DNA from: Escherichia coli
GTDB lineage: Bacteria; Pseudomonadota; Gammaproteobacteria; Enterobacterales; Enterobacteriaceae
DNA length: 64,000 nt
Assembly: GCA_025336725.1 (NCBI GenBank)
Contig: GCA_025336725.1_3647.1
Strand: one strand, 5' to 3'
This document shows, piece after piece, positions 39,509 to 44,879 of the stretch (its first letter is position 1; the number at the start of each line of letters is the position of its first letter). The position numbers and the translations under genes were made by a program. The notes below the pieces were generated by a model that worked only from the letters and a program-made list of their open reading frames with translations, was not told where the DNA came from and did not search any database.

Positions 39509-39585
39509 TGGTCTCCACGGAGTGATTCGAACACTCGACCTCCTGATCCCAAATCAGGCGCTCTACCAAGCTGAGCTACGCGGAG
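39509..39585 (-). tRNA. tRNA-Pro (anticodon UGG)
   Basis: Manual cloverleaf: 7-bp acceptor (one G-U), D-stem GCTC/GAGC, anticodon loop UUUGGGA, T-loop TTCGAAT, encoded CCA; 77 nt. Confidence 0.8.
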
Positions 39586-39594
39586 TTTATAATT

Positions 39595-39669
39595 TGGTGG
39601 CCCTGGGTGGAATTGAACCACCGTCTGGCGATTATGAGTCGCTTGCTTGAACCTTCCAGCTACAGGGCC
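39595..39669 (-). tRNA. tRNA-Met or tRNA-Ile2 (anticodon CAU)
   Basis: Manual fold: acceptor GGCCCTG/CAGGGCC, anticodon loop CUCAUAA, T-arm GGTGG-TTCAATT-CCACC, encoded CCA; D-stem only 3 bp; 75 nt. Confidence 0.65.
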
Positions 39670-39670
39670 A

Positions 39671-39746
39671 TGGTGCTGATGGCAGGACTCGAACCTGCAA
39701 CCTATTGATTACAAATCAATTGCACTACCAATTGTGCTACATCAGC
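39671..39746 (-). tRNA. tRNA-Thr (anticodon UGU)
   Basis: Manual fold: perfect 7-bp acceptor GCTGATG/CATCAGC, D-stem GCAC/GTGC, anticodon stem ATTGA/TCAAT, loop UUUGUAA, T-arm GCAGG-TTCGAGT-CCTGC, CCA; 76 nt. Confidence 0.8.
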
Positions 39747-39751
39747 AAAAA

Positions 39752-39850
39752 GGTGCTAGGCGATGGAATCGAACCACCTATGTATTCAACGACTACTTCG
39801 TCTATTTTCAGGATTAAAAATCCTCGCCCTTGCCAAAGGGCCTACCTAGC
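39752..39850 (-). tRNA. aberrant tRNA-like element (Lys-UUU-like anticodon loop, ~30-nt extra segment); possible pseudo-tRNA
   Basis: Good acceptor (GCTAGGT / GCCTAGC), D-arm (GCCC-N8-GGGC) and T-arm (GGTGG-TTCGATT-CCATC), but the anticodon stem is only 4 bp (loop UUUUUAA) and ~30 nt separate it from the T-arm; no encoded CCA; 99 nt. Confidence 0.3.
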
Positions 39851-39948
39851 ATATTATGCGAATCATGCTGCTAGTCGGCGATGACGACTGTAACATTTGT
39901 TAATCCGGTTCTGCTTCCGGAGCTCGCTTAATTTCATGATCCACGATC

Positions 39949-40038
39949 TGGCAGAGAGTAATGGAATCGAACCATCATCGAGGATATCTCAACGGGACGG
40001 TTTTCAAGACCGCTTGAGCACCATGCTCCCTACTCTCT
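39949..40038 (-). tRNA. tRNA-Ser (anticodon UGA)
   Basis: Manual fold: acceptor AGAGAGT/ACTCTCT, anticodon stem-loop GCGGT-CUUGAAA-ACCGT, ~20-nt variable arm with small hairpin, T-arm GATGG-TTCGATT-CCATT, CCA; 90 nt (type II). Confidence 0.7.
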
Positions 40039-40150
40039 TTTTATAAACAACACTGATAATGACACTGATTTTCGAACAGTTAGTGACTAGTATAAACGAC
40101 GATAAACATCAATGTCATTATCTATGTTATTTATCACAAATATGTAATTT

Positions 40151-40237
40151 TGGTGGGGAGTGATGGAGTCGAACCACCCGAGTCGCAATGACAATAGATT
40201 TACAGTCTACACCGCTACCCCTACGGTATAACTCCCC
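40151..40237 (-). tRNA. tRNA-Tyr (anticodon GUA)
   Basis: Manual fold: acceptor GGGGAGT/ACTCCCC, anticodon loop CUGUAAA, 15-nt variable arm hairpin (GTC-ATTGC-GAC), T-arm GGTGG-TTCGACT-CCATC, CCA; 87 nt. Confidence 0.75.
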
Positions 40238-40241
40238 GATT

Positions 40242-40316
40242 TGGCACCCCGTACTGGACTCGAACCAGTGTCAACGGCTTAGAAGGCCGCTGCTTTATCC
40301 ACTAAGCTAACAGGGC
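40242..40316 (-). tRNA. tRNA-Arg (anticodon UCU)
   Basis: Manual fold: acceptor GCCCTGT/ACGGGGT (two G-U pairs), D-stem GCTT/AAGC, anticodon stem GCGGC/GCCGT, loop CUUCUAA, T-arm ACTGG-TTCGAGT-CCAGT, CCA; 75 nt. Confidence 0.7.
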
Positions 40317-40412: not shown

Positions 40413-40606
40413 TTAACTGTTGCTAACAGGCTGTATTTCGGTGGTAAACGGCATAAAAGGTGCTGGTTTTTCAGCCTCTTCTACTACCACCTCTTCTTCC
40501 TCTTCACCAAACATCTCATCATATTCTTCCTGCATTCTGTCTGCCTTGTCAAGGACATACTCTGCAATGCTTTGACGAATATTTTGTTTGGTTTTCGGAT
40601 CCAACA
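40413..40606 (-). CDS. hypothetical acidic protein (may extend into the assembly gap)
   Basis: ATG at 40604-40606 (MLDPKTKQNIRQ...), Glu-rich C-terminus; the track ORF extends through the N-run, which cannot be trusted. Confidence 0.35.
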
Positions 40607-40607
40607 T

Positions 40608-40708
40608 CNNNNNNNNNNNNNNNNNNNNNNNNNNNNNNNNNNNNNNNNNNNNNNNNNNNNNNNNNNNNNNNNNNNNNNNNNNNNNNNNNNNNNNNNNNNN
40701 NNNNNNNN
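40608..40708. other. assembly gap (run of N)
   Basis: Unresolved bases seen directly in the sequence. Confidence 0.99.
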
Positions 40709-40716
40709 AAACAACC

Positions 40717-40959
40717 TCATTGTAAAGCACAAATAAATAAAACATACTTAATTTGTTTGTTATCGGGCTCAGGGTAGAAGTAGAAGATCTTGCTATCACC
40801 AATCTGAACACCACCATCCCAACAACATAAACCATAACCCGTATTCATACAAGCTAAGTCGTTGGCAAAATCTATTGCATCATCTAGTGCACGAAATTCA
40901 CCTTCATCTTCTAAATAATCCTCATTCATGGAGCGGAAAACGAGCTTAACCTTAAACAT
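40717..40959 (-). CDS. hypothetical protein
   Basis: 80 aa ORF; ATG with AGGTAA 6 nt upstream; stop lies just before the N-run. Confidence 0.4.
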   Translation of the reverse strand: MFKVKLVFRSMNEDYLEDEGEFRALDDAIDFANDLACMNTGYGLCCWDGGVQIGDSKIFYFYPEPDNKQIKYVLFICALQ

Positions 40960-41224: not shown

Positions 41225-41244
41225 TAGCTCTCCTCAGCGTTCAT

Positions 41245-41480
41245 AGTAAATTTTATTTAACATTACCTCATTCTTTGCAGAAAGAATACCGAGATATGCA
41301 TCACCGAACCTACCTGCAACAACCTCTGCATGATACATCACTTCGTTAATATCGTCAAGAGTGATAACTGGATGACCGTATCTCTCTGAATATTGTCTTA
41401 GAGTGCGATGTAGAGAGTCGTCATCGTAGGCAGACTTTTTAATATCGCAAACACGACGAATAGCCTTGATGTCGAAAAAC
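41245..41480 (-). CDS. open frame without start codon; probable frameshifted C-terminal continuation of the upstream gene
   Basis: About 75 codons open in a shifted frame (...GFFDIKAIRRVCDIKKSAYDDDSLHRTLRQYSERYGHPVITLDDINEVMYHAEVVAGRFGDAYLGILSAKNEVMLNKIYYER) directly after the stop of the 41492-41812 ORF; no in-frame ATG until the last 35 codons. Confidence 0.3.
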
Positions 41481-41491
41481 CCTGTGCGATA

Positions 41492-41812
41492 CTAACCAAA
41501 GGAAAGTGTCTCATCAGTATCAACATCTACATCAATACTAGCAAGAACCTTATCTACAAGATAGCTGTCATCCTTTGGACTAGCTTCCTTAGTGCGAATG
41601 TAGTTGCCATCTTTCCCTGGTGACAACTCCTTCTCATCACCAACTCGCATGTCATCGTTTGGCGGTGTTAACCACTTATCTGGATGCTTACGATCACGAG
41701 CGTCCGAATGATTGCGCTGGAAACCTGGCTTCCACTTGAAAGTTTTCCCCATCTGTTCTTCATCCTGATAACGTTTTGCAATCTTTTCTCGGTCATGTTT
41801 GCGTGAGCTCAT
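41492..41812 (-). CDS. hypothetical basic protein
   Basis: 106 aa ORF; ATG preceded by GAGGAG RBS. Confidence 0.45.
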   Translation of the reverse strand: MSSRKHDREKIAKRYQDEEQMGKTFKWKPGFQRNHSDARDRKHPDKWLTPPNDDMRVGDEKELSPGKDGNYIRTKEASPKDDSYLVDKVLASIDVDVDTDETLSFG

Positions 41813-41934
41813 AGCTGACTCCTCTTCAGGTTATAGAAAAACTCACTGTATCGCTTTGTAACAAGCTTTTCTATCAATCTGGTGTGATTGCCTTACCTAA
41901 TGTAGTTCACACAGCTGTAGAGCGATTTAGAGGC

Positions 41935-42180
41935 CTTCTTGCCAGTTTCCACACATAAACTTTAAACAAACTCGCGCGGGAGACTCTCAACCGACTCCTT
42001 ACGGCGCTTGCAAGCTTTCGTCGGCGGTCCACATTAGTGCTCGGCCTTTGGCCTGCGCTATAGCTTCGCTACCACACATGTGAACAGTCATGCATGTATG
42101 CACGCCTGTTATTGTGTGCACTATGGAGGCCCGGCATCTCGCCCCTCATAGGCGAGTGCCAATGAAGGGCCGACACTATA
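41935..42180. other. GC-rich non-coding island with nested inverted repeats (candidate structured RNA or cis element)
   Basis: No ORF of 60 aa or more on the minus strand; visibly GC-richer than flanks; perfect palindrome GCTTGCAAGC; hairpins GGCC-TTT-GGCC and CTCGCC-N7-GGCGAG nested within GGCCC...GGGCC. Confidence 0.3.
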
Positions 42181-42315
42181 CCAGTAAGTAATAAATTTAA
42201 AACATAATACTTTAGATCTAGTATATTCTACATAAGTTAAGTATATGTACTTTAGTACCATAAGTACTAGATCTTTTATTTTTTATTATTTAGTTATTTT
42301 AGTTATATTCTTTAT
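42181..42315. promoter_or_regulatory. AT-rich region with 10-bp inverted repeat pair (possible DNA-unwinding element)
   Basis: Highly AT-rich; AGATCTAGTA (42214-42223) and its reverse complement TACTAGATCT (42265-42274); lies directly beside the palindrome array. Confidence 0.3.
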
Positions 42316-42398
42316 GTGTCCGTATCACGGACAGTTAGTGTCCGTATTACGGACAGATGTGTCCGCGTGGCGGACAGTAGTGTCCGTCTCACGGACAG
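42316..42398. repeat. array of four tandem 17-bp palindromes TGTCCGY-N3-RCGGACA at 21-22 bp spacing (iteron/operator array)
   Basis: Four units start at 42316, 42338, 42359 and 42380: GTGTCCGTATCACGGACAG, GTGTCCGTATTACGGACAG, GTGTCCGCGTGGCGGACAG, GTGTCCGTCTCACGGACAG; each core is a perfect inverted repeat with 7-bp arms and 3-bp spacer. Confidence 0.8.
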
Positions 42399-42419: not shown

Positions 42420-42448
42420 TGGACATAAAACATACATACCTTTATAAT
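42420..42448 (+). promoter_or_regulatory. sigma70-like promoter adjacent to the palindrome array
   Basis: TGGACA (42420-42425), 17-bp spacer, TATAAT (42443-42448); the -35 overlaps a DnaA-box-like TTGTGGACA; it would fire antisense to the winged-helix gene. Confidence 0.4.
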
Positions 42449-42472: not shown

Positions 42473-42823
42473 CTAACCAGTTGTCGACATGTGAATCACT
42501 TCTTCTGGTGGTAAAACTTTAGAAAATGTGCATCTTTTCCCTCTCCCTTGTGTGGAAGTTTCAACTATCCCAGCACACTCTAAAGTTCTAACGCATTCTG
42601 CTGCTTTCGTTTTCTTAATCCCTGTATCAGCTGCAATTTTCCTTGTGCTTGGTGTGAATCGTGAATTTCCTCCAAGCTTATACCAGTTGTGCAGATAGCA
42701 GTATACTACCTTGTCATACAGATCAAGAATAACCACCTCTCCTGTTGTAGTATTCAAAACTTTCGACAGAGAAAGTATCCCAAGCGGGACTTTAAGATAG
42801 GGCAGCTTATCCTCATCTTTCAT
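42473..42823 (-). CDS. putative winged-helix DNA-binding protein (candidate iteron/operator binder)
   Basis: 116 aa; C-terminal half PSTRKIAADTGIKKTKAAECVRTLECAGIVE looks like a helix-turn-helix/winged-helix recognition segment; stop lies 75 bp from the palindrome array. Confidence 0.4.
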   Translation of the reverse strand: MKDEDKLPYLKVPLGILSLSKVLNTTTGEVVILDLYDKVVYCYLHNWYKLGGNSRFTPSTRKIAADTGIKKTKAAECVRTLECAGIVETSTQGRGKRCTFSKVLPPEEVIHMSTTG

Positions 42824-42870: not shown

Positions 42871-43425
42871 TTACTCCCTGCTGTCAATATCAAAACCCAT
42901 TGCAAGGCCGTATGCCTCTTCTAGCGGTAACAGTCTCCCCCACACATCCCAACCAACATCCAACTGCCTGCCAAATAACTGTTGTGTGGTTCCGTGAGCA
43001 TGACCAAACAGTTGAACTGATCCGTGGGGCTTTCTGTTCCACGTTGCAAACTGGTAATGGCTCATACAGATCAGATTCTTGTTGTGGCGAAGCTCGTAAT
43101 AATCTACAACCTCATGACAGAACTCTTTCATAATTCTGACAGTCGTCCTTGTGTCATGGTTACCACGAACAAGAATAATATGTCCGTTCAGCATATTTAG
43201 AATTTCAGGCAGTAAGTTGTTGATATTCTTATCCTTAGTGCATGCAATGTCTCCCAAGTGGAACACGGTGTCCCATGGTGACACAATTGAGTTCCACTTG
43301 TCTATGATCCCTGCATTCATGCTATCAAGATCGTGGTTATACTGCGATCTGTGCTTTTGACAAGAATCGAACTCCATAACACGCTGGTGGAGAAAGTGTG
43401 TGTCACTTGTTATAAAATATTTCAT
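42871..43425 (-). CDS. calcineurin-like metallophosphatase (candidate RNA 3'-phosphatase)
   Basis: 184 aa; metallophosphoesterase motifs ITSDTHF, GD (HLGDIA), VRGNHD, and a His cluster (HAHG); adjacent to a P-loop kinase and divergent from an Rnl1-like ligase. Confidence 0.6.
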   Translation of the reverse strand: MKYFITSDTHFLHQRVMEFDSCQKHRSQYNHDLDSMNAGIIDKWNSIVSPWDTVFHLGDIACTKDKNINNLLPEILNMLNGHIILVRGNHDTRTTVRIMKEFCHEVVDYYELRHNKNLICMSHYQFATWNRKPHGSVQLFGHAHGTTQQLFGRQLDVGWDVWGRLLPLEEAYGLAMGFDIDSRE

Positions 43426-43432
43426 ACTATCC

Positions 43433-43843
43433 TCATTTAAGTTTAATACAGTTTTTCAGTTCACGTTCCATACGATCCACAACCCTTTCTGGAACATTGT
43501 GGATACTTTTGTTACCGTGGCGATTCTCCACCACGATTACGGTGTAATTATACCCATTACGGATCGCCATGTCAATATACTCTTGCACATGCTTTTCTTT
43601 TGTGAATGTGTTGCTTACCACGACACGGTCGTATCCCATACGCATCATATCTTCTATATTATCTTTGCACCATTTTGCAGCAAGTGTGACTTTACTTGCA
43701 TCCCAGTTGTAATTTCCATCATCGTCGTACCAGAACATGTCGTTCTCAAAATGTGGATACAGACCTTCTAAAGATAGCGCATTTGCCAGTGTTGATTTGC
43801 CAGACCCTGGTAGACCACGCACGATATACAGCATTTTAGACAT
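43433..43843 (-). CDS. polynucleotide-kinase-like P-loop kinase
   Basis: Likely start ATG 43841-43843 (MSKMLYIVRGLPGSGKST...) with GGAGGG RBS; Walker A GLPGSGKST and VVVSNT segment resemble the T4 Pnk kinase domain. Confidence 0.55.
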   Translation of the reverse strand: MSKMLYIVRGLPGSGKSTLANALSLEGLYPHFENDMFWYDDDGNYNWDASKVTLAAKWCKDNIEDMMRMGYDRVVVSNTFTKEKHVQEYIDMAIRNGYNYTVIVVENRHGNKSIHNVPERVVDRMERELKNCIKLK

Positions 43844-43961
43844 AGCGACCCTCCGTTTTAATTTTAACGACAGTATACCGTGTTCTTTTGAACATTTCAA
43901 GTGTTGACATGATGCTGTTTGTGTGGGAAGATTGTGTAACAAAATGACAAACGAGGAACGT

Positions 43962-44879
43962 ATGATGAAGTATTTTAATGCAGATGATTTAGTGGATAAA
44001 GGTCTTGTAACCAGTCGGTATTATCCAAATCTCGGATTAAAGATCTACAAATATGCCAGAAAAGTATTCTACAACAATTTATGGCATTTGTCTCCGCGTC
44101 TACTGGAGTGCCGAGGCATTGTTGTCGGTAACGAGGGGAATGTTGTGGCATGGCCCTTCACAAAAGTGTTTAACTTAGGAGAAAACTCCACCAACCTACC
44201 TGACAATAAGCTTGTGACGGCTGTAGAGAAAAAGAACGGGTTCCTTGGCGTGGTATCCTCTCATAAAGGTGAACTATTGTTCTCAACGACTGGGTCTCTT
44301 GATTCTCCATATTGTAACCTTGCAAAGGAAACCATCCAGGAGCAATGTGGCAATTTAGATCTTATCAAGAAGGTTATGGGCCATGAAAACATGACATTTA
44401 TGTTTGAAATTTGTCACCCTTCAGACCCGCATATTGTTCATGAGGATCATGGTGCGTATTTGATAGGTTGTAGATACAATGATTCTGGAATAATGCTACC
44501 AGAAGCGGCTTTAGACGGTATTGCCAAGTATCTTGGTGCAAAACGTCCTCACACTGTGCGTGAAATTCCGTTCAGCTATGCAAAAGAATTAGCTGCAGAA
44601 ACAAGAGGTGAAGGGTATATGATTCGTAAGCCTTACTACCCTTATGATCTGCAGCTGAAGATCAAGTCTCCATACTATTTGGCACGGAAGGCCGTAATGA
44701 GGGGTAAAGCTTGGAAGATTTGGGATGATGATATCTTTAAACGTGTTGACGAAGAGTTTTATGGCATGGTAAACTTCATTCGTAGCAATTACACAGAAGA
44801 TGTGTGGAACTGCCTCCTGGAGCAAGAACGTCGTGAGATACTTGACTGCTATTTCCACAACGAGGACTATATGCAATGA
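43962..44879 (+). CDS. RNA ligase, T4 Rnl1-like
   Basis: Shares LECRGI, KVFNLGEN (T4 KFFNLNEN) and nucleotidyltransferase motif I lysine VEKKNGFLG (T4 KEDG); motif IV EGYMIRK and V LKIKSP. Track start is GTG 43923; ATG 43962 has GAGGAA RBS. Confidence 0.7.
   Translation: MMKYFNADDLVDKGLVTSRYYPNLGLKIYKYARKVFYNNLWHLSPRLLECRGIVVGNEGNVVAWPFTKVFNLGENSTNLPDNKLVTAVEKKNGFLGVVSSHKGELLFSTTGSLDSPYCNLAKETIQEQCGNLDLIKKVMGHENMTFMFEICHPSDPHIVHEDHGAYLIGCRYNDSGIMLPEAALDGIAKYLGAKRPHTVREIPFSYAKELAAETRGEGYMIRKPYYPYDLQLKIKSPYYLARKAVMRGKAWKIWDDDIFKRVDEEFYGMVNFIRSNYTEDVWNCLLEQERREILDCYFHNEDYMQ

Follow-up and report, generated by a model that had tools for sequence, protein, structure and literature searches.

A GC-rich island of rV5-like phages is a candidate gene for a structured RNA with homologues in putative plasmid satellites

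Introduction

What function, if any, is served by a GC-rich and apparently non-coding island of about 250 bp, packed with inverted repeats, that lies beside an array of palindromes in phage DNA from an Escherichia coli assembly? The island occupies 41922-42174 of a stretch of 64,000 nucleotides (GenBank assembly GCA_025336725.1, contig GCA_025336725.1_3647.1), referred to here as the window and numbered from its first letter. It sits in a 660-bp gap flanked by two minus-strand genes (42823..42473 and 41812..41492), with, to its right in the same gap, a 125-bp AT-rich block (42185-42310) and, beyond that, four 17-bp palindromes (42317-42397). A preliminary description suggested either a structured RNA or a cis-acting DNA site such as a packaging signal, rather than a spacer. 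On balance, the comparative evidence makes it probable that the island is a conserved gene for a structured non-coding RNA (ncRNA) of about 250 nt, encoded on the + strand as an array of hairpin cassettes that is shared with putative satellites carried on plasmids.

The 901 bases around the island match 119 phage records at 84-98% identity, all of them rV5-like myoviruses of the genus Vequintavirus and the closest being OX460980.1 (98%); judged by this identity, the window is Vequintavirus DNA. The island itself is present as one copy in each of the 119 genomes, again at 84-98% identity.

A conserved non-coding island

The island departs in composition from everything around it. Its GC content is 54.5%, compared with 43.5% for the whole window and approximately 44% for the phage and the related plasmids overall, and in 200-nt windows it reaches 0.505-0.525 against 0.34-0.44 on both sides. 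Nearby tRNA genes are likewise GC-elevated; in AT-rich genomes such enrichment is characteristic of structured RNA, and it supports that reading. Every inverted repeat named in the preliminary description is present, and its account of the island as non-coding is borne out: overlapping open reading frames encode only 33-46 amino acids, and relatives carry 1-nt insertions or deletions as well as deletions of 17-21 nt within the island, which is therefore non-coding. Two details require amendment. The start, first placed at 41935, lies about 13 nt further to the left, at 41922, where the conserved element really begins. Similarly, the perfect palindrome GCTTGCAAGC does occur at 42006-42015 but is lineage-specific, other phages and all plasmids reading GCTGGCAAGC in its place; given this limitation to one lineage, the palindrome is incidental.

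Conservation is concentrated in two blocks within the island. Over the predicted body of the RNA (41922..42174, + strand), which runs from GCGATTTAGAGG to the end of a terminal hairpin, GGGCCGAC, the mean column identity among 19 aligned phage copies is 94%. When this rather divergent phage is aligned with 13 relatives, identity is 94.9% in block A and 97.2% in block B, whereas the flanking coding sequences reach 87-88%; between the blocks it falls to 86%, and it is there that the deletions occur. The structure is judged to be real because the two blocks are better conserved than the flanking coding sequences and because, as described below, their stems covary. Even a divergent 137-kb phage from a metagenome (L020/L026) keeps the island. 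Capture of host DNA was considered and ruled out as the source, as there is no match on E. coli chromosomes, only on plasmids.

The family to which the island belongs is absent from Rfam. At gathering thresholds, Rfam 15 finds only five tRNAs in the window; with E-values allowed up to 10, the island region returns nothing beyond a sub-threshold match to rli43 (25 bits, against a threshold of 100) that falls mostly over the AT-rich block. Five homologous loci gave no Rfam match, and a plasmid array searched at E up to 5 gave only noise. The preliminary description had looked to Rfam and to conservation in relatives as its touchstones; the first yielded no match, and conservation and covariation proved to be strong. 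A tRNA or tmRNA within the island was ruled out, ARAGORN calling only a cluster of six tRNAs at 39.5-40.3 kb, and Tandem Repeats Finder (TRF) detects no tandem repeat in 41922-42174.

Homologous cassettes on small plasmids

A sensitive search of E. coli genomes and plasmids found block A (86% identity by blastn to a plasmid cassette termed M1) and block B (89% to a cassette termed M7) in unannotated DNA of small circular plasmids, namely NZ_CP020521.1 (L004, 13,689 bp), NZ_CP035869.1, CP148565.1, and NZ_CP178698.1; a further record, NZ_CP043822.1 (39.6 kb), is a trimer with three tandem copies of such a plasmid. The distance from block A to block B is 186 nt in the plasmid and 90 nt in the phage. 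The blocks are the sole nucleotide-level similarity found between these plasmids and the 1.6 kb of the phage island region that was tested. The plasmids form a family of 13-14 kb circular elements (L004 plus L003, L005-L007, L021, L024, and L030-L039), and their capsid family comprises 18 clusters, all from E. coli and mostly on contigs of 13.4-14.3 kb, one cluster alone having 441 members.

These plasmids encode homologues of four structural proteins that are present in the window itself: a baseplate protein of the Dit-like type (47-53% identity, E = 3e-46), a tail-completion or neck protein (45%, E = 1e-34), a major capsid protein (23.5%, E = 3e-8), and a tape-measure protein whose top hits in the phage database come from Vequintavirus. 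Among the plasmid proteins, neither a terminase nor a portal could be recognised. Given rV5-type structural homologues without a recognisable terminase or portal, the plasmids are probably satellites of rV5-type phages, a status that comes from gene content alone. In a 2025 review, only one plasmid is described as having been shown to be a phage satellite (PMC12282955), and a literature search returned no description of these plasmids, of rV5 satellites, or of an RNA in the island region.

The plasmids carry their own iterons and a winged-helix Rep-like protein that hits the Pfam family HTH_36 weakly; BLASTP shows no homology between it and the winged-helix protein encoded beside the island in the phage. 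Approximately a third of the plasmids (L030, L031, L033, L034, and L035) have no phage-type block A, and block B is found in L004 and L036 only. In L030, 4.3 kb that includes its main non-coding regions matches no phage.

A strong sigma-70 promoter accompanied by repeated ATTGTCAA boxes adjoins the array at 11875-12250 of L004, and at the same place in the other plasmids. It is divergent from the array and drives a reading frame of 49 aa, one of 69 aa, and the Rep-like gene; the product of the 49-aa frame is hydrophobic and resembles a small membrane toxin or a protein of the holin kind.

Helices maintained by compensatory substitution

Comparison of phage and plasmid provides one argument for a structure under selection. 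All eight substitutions that fall inside four helices form four compensatory pairs, and the other differences lie in loops and linkers. Helix Ha of block A changes from CCGAC/GTCGG in the phage to CTGCC/GGCAG in the plasmid by two compensatory double changes; in block B, the middle stem changes from GGCA/TGCC to GTCA/TGAC and the inner stem from CTCGCC/GGCGAG to CTCTCC/GGAGAG, each by one such double change. For the helices of the phage itself the evidence thus consists of a single phage-to-plasmid comparison and four pairs. The check for covariation among related phages that was first proposed proved impossible with phages alone, as the 19 copies are 94% identical and contain no pair with a double change.

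The plasmids allow an independent test. In seven aligned variants of a three-hairpin plasmid cassette, pairing holds in 98.8% of cells, and both sides have changed in 7 of 12 pairs; the covariation score is 0.53, compared with 0.21 ± 0.04 for shuffled alignments, none of 500 of which reach it, and with 0.01-0.15 when the partners are slid out of register. These comparisons show helices kept by compensatory substitution and, on sequence evidence, a structure under selection. The structured RNA first proposed for the locus consequently gains support from the compensatory changes, from the covariation of plasmid cassettes, from GC enrichment, and from terminators found at the 3' ends of arrays in plasmids and in the divergent phage.

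Architecture of the array

Cassettes were defined by splitting the arrays at CCACA(C/T), and each consists of a C/A linker (usually CCCACACA) followed by one to three hairpins with stems of 4-7 bp and loops mostly of 3-4 nt. Linkers of the form CCACA(C/T)A number three in the phage and 3-6 in the plasmids and always lie between hairpins. The phage array opens with a 5' part (41922-41948) that is followed by cassettes P1, containing block A, P2, and P3, which ends in block B. Linker 1, CCACACA (41949..41955, +), begins P1, and the same linker of 7-9 nt begins every cassette of the plasmid arrays. Block A, the core cassette (41973..42035, +), is built around helix Ha, in which the arms CCGAC (41991..41995) and GTCGG (42020..42024) pair across a 24-nt loop, TCCTTACGGCGCTTGCAAGCTTTC (41996..42019), that is near-invariant in phages and plasmids and includes the palindrome discussed above. 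Used as a search pattern, this loop recovered phage and satellite copies only, plus one unrelated GC-rich contig (L023).

Cassette P2 (42029..42071, +) has a degenerate linker, CCACAT, and two hairpins, GGCC-TTT-GGCC (42043-42053) and TAGC-TTC-GCTA (42061-42071); the former is invariant among phages and therefore gives no covariation information. Linker 3, CCACACA (42072..42078, +), begins P3 (42072-42174), in which a variable hairpin, AACAG...CTGTT with an inner stem TGCAT/ATGCA (42083..42110, +), is partly deleted in phages Murica, MaxTheCat, and typing phage 5 and in the divergent phage L020 has shifted register to ACAGC/GCTGT. Block B (42125..42177, +) is the nested hairpin at the 3' end: CTCGCC-N7-GGCGAG (42138-42156; stem 42138-43/42151-56) lies within GGCA/TGCC (42133-36/42157-60), which in turn lies within GGCCC/GGGCC (42128-32/42167-71).

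Plasmid arrays follow the same plan with more variation. In all 15 of the 15 arrays that were extracted, a longer 5' part is followed by block A or a variant of it, M1', by one to four cassettes from a common pool, and by a terminal cassette. This last is block B in L004 and L036 and otherwise a perfect hairpin of 10-11 bp with TTTCATTTGT after it; M7, the counterpart of block B, thus occupies the slot held elsewhere by the terminator cassette, M8. An array has 3-6 cassettes, which are combined differently even between plasmids with an identical capsid protein, and some are near-identical to those of the phage; this cassette plan with its shuffling was observed in more than 15 plasmid copies.

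Within the window CCACACA occurs 22 times, compared with 10.6 expected, with a cluster at 41.9-43.9 kb. A few copies lie just upstream of start codons (42846, 43926); a general role as a signal preceding genes was rejected, the fraction near an ATG being that expected by chance. In the plasmids L004, L021, and L030 the shorter CCACAC is over-represented several-fold (25 copies in 13.7 kb against about 7 estimated by chance), mostly in non-coding DNA and on both strands, and some copies form inverted pairs, among them CCACACAG-N18-CTGTGTGG, located roughly 300 bp upstream of the capsid operon. A scan of genome and viral contigs for three CCCACACA linkers 30-60 nt apart returned 173 loci, none similar to the cassettes; it was swamped by CRISPR arrays from many phyla (L040-L119), whose repeats contain CCCCACACACGTGGGG. 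These repeats, which we take to be type I-E-like, contain the hairpin CCCCAC-ACAC-GTGGGG, as in GTGTTCCCCACACACGTGGGGATGAACCG. Because the pattern scan of genome contigs caught CRISPR repeats instead, no relatives outside E. coli were recovered.

Strand and transcription

The two ends proposed for the RNA correspond to the limits of its homology with plasmid arrays, and its strand is read from terminators on the + strand of homologues. Plasmid arrays end in an intrinsic terminator (TTTCATTTGT after the stem) on the strand equivalent to the + strand of the window, and in L020 block B is followed by a linker, CCACACC, a hairpin, and a long run of T that together score as a + strand terminator. 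Likewise, the helices, with boundaries chosen by hand and for that reason only weakly informative, contain 190 Watson-Crick pairs, 6 G:T, and 0 A:C, a bias that favors the + strand because G:T would form a wobble pair only in an RNA with the + strand sequence. Folding energy was rejected as a guide to the strand, as the G/U-rich minus strand always folds lower. On balance, it is rather likely that the + strand is the functional one, and slightly more likely still that the island acts as RNA and not as single-stranded DNA, although hairpins in single-stranded DNA are a possible alternative.

The RNA would be read from left to right, from about 41915 to 42175, antisense to the neighboring phage genes. 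A candidate extended -10 element for it lies at 41898..41906 (+) and reads TGGTATAGT in most relatives. It resembles an rV5 motif, TGGTAAAATA (PMC3606486 Table S4). In plasmids L034 and L035 a TATACT -10 immediately precedes the first linker. Another recurring promoter-like motif, CGATTTAGAGG, was rejected as not enriched.

Several observations weigh against an RNA gene on this strand. The fold of the lone sequence is only marginally better than chance, with z = -1.75 for the minus and -1.95 for the + strand and 9-10 of 200 shuffles folding equally well, and the case from one sequence is weak. A sigma-70 scan finds no + strand promoter for the island or the arrays, and the extended -10 is degenerate in this window (TAATGTAGT) and in L020, so that, not being conserved in either, it constitutes weak evidence. 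Block B in this window is followed by GACACTATACC, which lacks a U-tract. The summed minimum free energy of the cassettes is lower on the minus strand (-790 against -729 kcal/mol). Antisense targets sought in the window and in a plasmid were at chance level (best 10-13 nt, E ≥ 0.3), and no binding partner was found for the putative RNA. Finally, an iteron-type region invariably lies ahead of the array, an orientation at least as compatible with a role linked to an origin of replication as with one in trans.

A possible decoy or scaffold

As proposed, the RNA would be a string of cassettes in which a single-stranded CCACACA linker precedes one to three short GC-rich hairpins. The first, block A, would present a 5-bp helix closing an invariant 24-nt loop, and the last, block B, a nested 15-bp hairpin at the position of the intrinsic terminator of related arrays. 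How such a molecule would act is a more tentative matter. One possibility is a trans-acting decoy or scaffold with multiple sites for a phage or host protein, the hairpins serving to keep the repeated linkers and conserved loops single-stranded for a protein needed by phage and satellite alike. This mode of action is favored because the linker is the sole feature found in every cassette, because cassette number varies freely, and because the arrays are cleanly terminated.

The nearest parallels in form may be the sponge RNAs CsrB/CsrC, RsmY/Z, and CrcZ, which likewise consist of a string of hairpins with a repeated single-stranded motif, a variable number of units, and an intrinsic terminator at the 3' end. 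A short motif repeated single-stranded along one RNA is found here in the CCACA(C/T)A linkers. Unlike the sponges, the island repeats CCACACA and not GGA loops or A-rich boxes, has no Rfam match, has hairpins between the linkers that are themselves conserved and covarying, and resides in a virulent phage and in plasmids instead of a host chromosome. The GGA-bearing loop of Csr/Rsm RNAs is absent: GGA occurs only twice in the phage RNA (GCGGGAGAC and TGGAGGCC), in neither case in a hairpin loop, and in the plasmid hairpins GTA, GAA, ATG, and AGA loops are as frequent as GGA.

Other phage and plasmid RNAs offer partial precedents. Pseudo-ToxI, a type III antitoxin RNA array, occurs in Pectobacterium phage PhiTE of the same subfamily. 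It resembles the island in being an ncRNA array in an rV5-related phage with plasmid homologues, and it sets a precedent for RNA mimicry in conflict between phage and host; ToxI, however, consists of tandem identical 36-nt units beside a toxin gene, whereas the cassettes of the island differ in sequence and length. In the phage, the island has no gene after it on the + strand. General scans of the plasmid proteins found no toxin family, no search having been aimed at ToxN-like toxins. The CI RNA of P4 and the C4 RNA of P1/P7 are likewise structured RNAs of a plasmid-capable satellite and related phages that lie in a leader or control region, but the Rfam C4 model does not match the island, no complementary target sites are found, and the island RNA is much longer and modular. 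On these analogies, the island would resemble sponge RNAs most closely in form and origin-proximal transcripts in position. Its unusual features would be the sharing between helper and satellite and the shuffling of cassettes; in other respects, it would be a structured regulatory RNA of the kind found in phages and plasmids.

Alternative explanations

The main rival, itself unlikely, is that the island belongs to an origin of replication, as a priming or activating part of an origin that also includes the AT-rich block and four iterons bound by a winged helix-turn-helix (wHTH) protein. Two versions share this modest probability. In one, a rightward transcript into the AT-rich block would activate or prime DNA synthesis; in the other, hairpins extruded on unwound single-stranded DNA would serve as an entry site for primase or primosome (ssi). 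Satellites with the same blocks would then be replicated by the machinery of the helper. The arrangement is suggestive, for the array faces iteron-like repeats within about 130-260 bp in three non-homologous contexts: in phages of the present type; in L020, with other repeats and another wHTH protein; and in plasmids, with at least four types of iteron. In the window, the repeats are four palindromes, TGTCCGnnnnnCGGACA, at a spacing of 21-22 bp (42317..42397; 4 observed against 0.05 expected), one copy of which is missing in phages EdH4 and V18. The AT-rich block beside them (42185..42310; about 34-35% GC in 200-nt windows) is 96-98% identical across the genus and lies outside the RNA homology with plasmids. 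This combination of four dyad-symmetric sites with an AT-rich block and a gene whose product is an initiator-like DNA-binding domain is reminiscent of the origin of phage lambda.

The gene in question encodes a 116-aa wHTH protein (42473..42823, minus strand) that matches PHROG 12838, annotated as a replication initiation protein, at 1e-71 and Pfam HTH_36 only just at threshold, the same family that the plasmid Rep-like proteins hit weakly. It is the presumed binder of the four palindromes. Being a DNA-binding domain alone, it could also be a repressor, and the palindromes, presumed origin sites, could themselves be operators. In L020, the palindromes and the 116-aa protein are jointly replaced by repeats of the ATCTGATGCA type and a different winged-helix protein of 143 aa, while the island and the left-hand gene are retained; the island is thus a unit separate from the palindrome cassette. 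The repeats and the AT-rich, unwinding-type region of an iteron origin are indeed present, but they lie beside the island, not inside it.

In favor of this rival, there is no terminator between block B and the AT-rich block in this window, and hairpins that are Watson-Crick on both strands suit single-stranded DNA as well as RNA. Yet most plasmids and L020 have a strong + strand terminator between array and repeats, which argues for a discrete RNA over a primer reading into the origin, and phage-type blocks A and B are missing in about a third of the plasmids. Origin-associated transcripts are well known, among them ColE1 RNA II, the R-loop RNAs of T4 ori(uvsY) and ori(34), the transcript of the T7 primary origin, and lambda oop. 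The island shares with them a structured (here putative) transcript adjoining, and aimed at, an AT-rich region and initiator repeats. It differs in that most of its homologues terminate before the repeats, in having neither sequence nor Rfam similarity to them, and in that no RNA-DNA hybrid motif or processing site was identified in it. The authors of the rV5 genome study could not place an origin (PMC3606486).

A leader or intercistronic spacer on the minus strand, controlling read-through, processing, or translation of a leftward operon that comprises the wHTH gene, the PHROG 12226 gene, and the tRNAs, is improbable. In its favor, the genes around the island all occupy the minus strand, the wHTH gene is not followed by a terminator, and in the rV5 study a leftward unit comprising genes 81 to 27 begins 1.8 kb further right (PMC3606486). 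Folds on this strand are at least as stable as those on the + strand. Just upstream of the island in the leftward direction, at 42183-42175 (minus strand), is the extended -10-like TGGTATAGT, which could start a leftward transcript through it. This element is limited to the present lineage and absent from the other 100 or more phages, the plasmids encode nothing downstream on that strand in the array region, the terminal hairpin of their arrays is a terminator on the + strand only, and the count of G:T against A:C speaks for the + strand by 6 to 0.

The packaging signal first suggested as an alternative to an RNA, by which satellites would copy the start site of the helper terminase as in the P2/P4 cos system, is slightly more improbable still. 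Helper and satellite there share a non-coding segment despite divergence of their genomes, just as the island blocks are the only nucleotide similarity found between the plasmids and the tested 1.6 kb of the phage; moreover, the plasmids have no recognisable terminase, and the gene for the large subunit of the phage terminase lies about 4 kb from the island. In contrast to cos, the shared segment is constrained by base pairing and closes with a terminator, and a third of the satellites lack it. A site recognized as duplex would not be expected to show compensatory stem changes or a 3' terminator, and the linkers, 37-98 bp apart, show no helical phasing. A pac or cos site would be found in the helper and in every dependent satellite; blocks A and B are not, the five plasmids without phage-type block A including L030, with its 4.3 kb that match no phage. 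Finally, rV5-like phages are reported to be circularly permuted and to have no fixed termini (PMC8407724).

Absence of any function (the island being a spacer rich in GC, the remnant of a gene, or inverted repeats that arose by chance) has a negligible probability, as the modest single-sequence z-scores of -1.8 to -1.95 and the unconserved palindrome GCTTGCAAGC are outweighed by blocks that are better conserved than neighboring coding sequences, covary, and recur in otherwise non-homologous plasmids, and the initial judgment that this is no spacer is upheld by the same comparative data.

Neighboring genes and sequences

The left neighbor of the island (41492..41812, minus strand), transcribed away from it, belongs to PHROG 12226, of unknown function. 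In this window the gene (41234-41812) is reduced to a reading frame of 106 aa, compared with 192 aa in all annotated relatives and in L020; a tblastn search of the 98%-identical OX460980.1 covers all 192 residues, which suggests a frameshift or sequencing error near 41500 in the window. As a route to more distant phage homologues, neither flanking protein was productive: both the wHTH and the PHROG 12226 protein are limited to the same approximately 120 Vequintavirus records, and a search of viral contigs with the wHTH protein gave no match. Directly to the right of the palindromes, at 42420-42448 (+), lies a strong sigma-70-like promoter, TGGACA-17-TATAAT (11 of 12 positions), that points to the right and would transcribe the 3' end of the wHTH gene in antisense; relatives keep TGAACA-17-TATAGT.

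Further to the right, a gene set at 42871-44879, near the tRNA cluster, resembles a tRNA-repair pathway: a metallophosphoesterase (42871-43425, minus strand), an AAA_33 ATPase resembling polynucleotide kinase (43433-43942, minus strand), and a divergent RNA ligase (43923-44879, +). In phage LL12, Sir2-like genes come after this set. The tRNA cluster itself (39509-40316, minus strand) encodes six tRNAs (Pro, Met, Thr, Ser, Tyr, and Arg), five of which are also matched by Rfam; the annotation of LL12 has a seventh, odd tRNA-Lys in the stretch that matches 39747-39948, which neither ARAGORN nor Rfam calls here. Between the cluster and the small genes to its right, 40500-40800 is extremely AT-rich (GC 0.17-0.22 in 200-nt windows). 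With regard to database records, 18 entries named Campylobacter phage, 16 of them with C. jejuni as the host, are about 90% identical to this E. coli phage over the region and look like mislabelled rV5-like coliphages.

Implications

Structured RNAs of virulent phages are poorly known. The island RNA, if it is one, would be present throughout a genus whose members are used for biocontrol and therapy, would be more tightly conserved than the genes adjacent to it, and would belong to no described RNA family. A more speculative suggestion, which we regard as doubtful at present, is that the island forms a molecular link between rV5-like virulent phages and a family of satellites carried on plasmids. 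A factor of the helper, involved in replication priming, induction, or packaging, would recognize the shared RNA cassettes, and the satellites would copy these cassettes either for their own amplification and mobilisation or to titrate the factor away from the phage; the rapid shuffling of cassettes in the satellites would then be the trace of that conflict. If this is true, a plasmid satellite tied to a large virulent myovirus by a shared RNA would represent a new relationship between helper and satellite.

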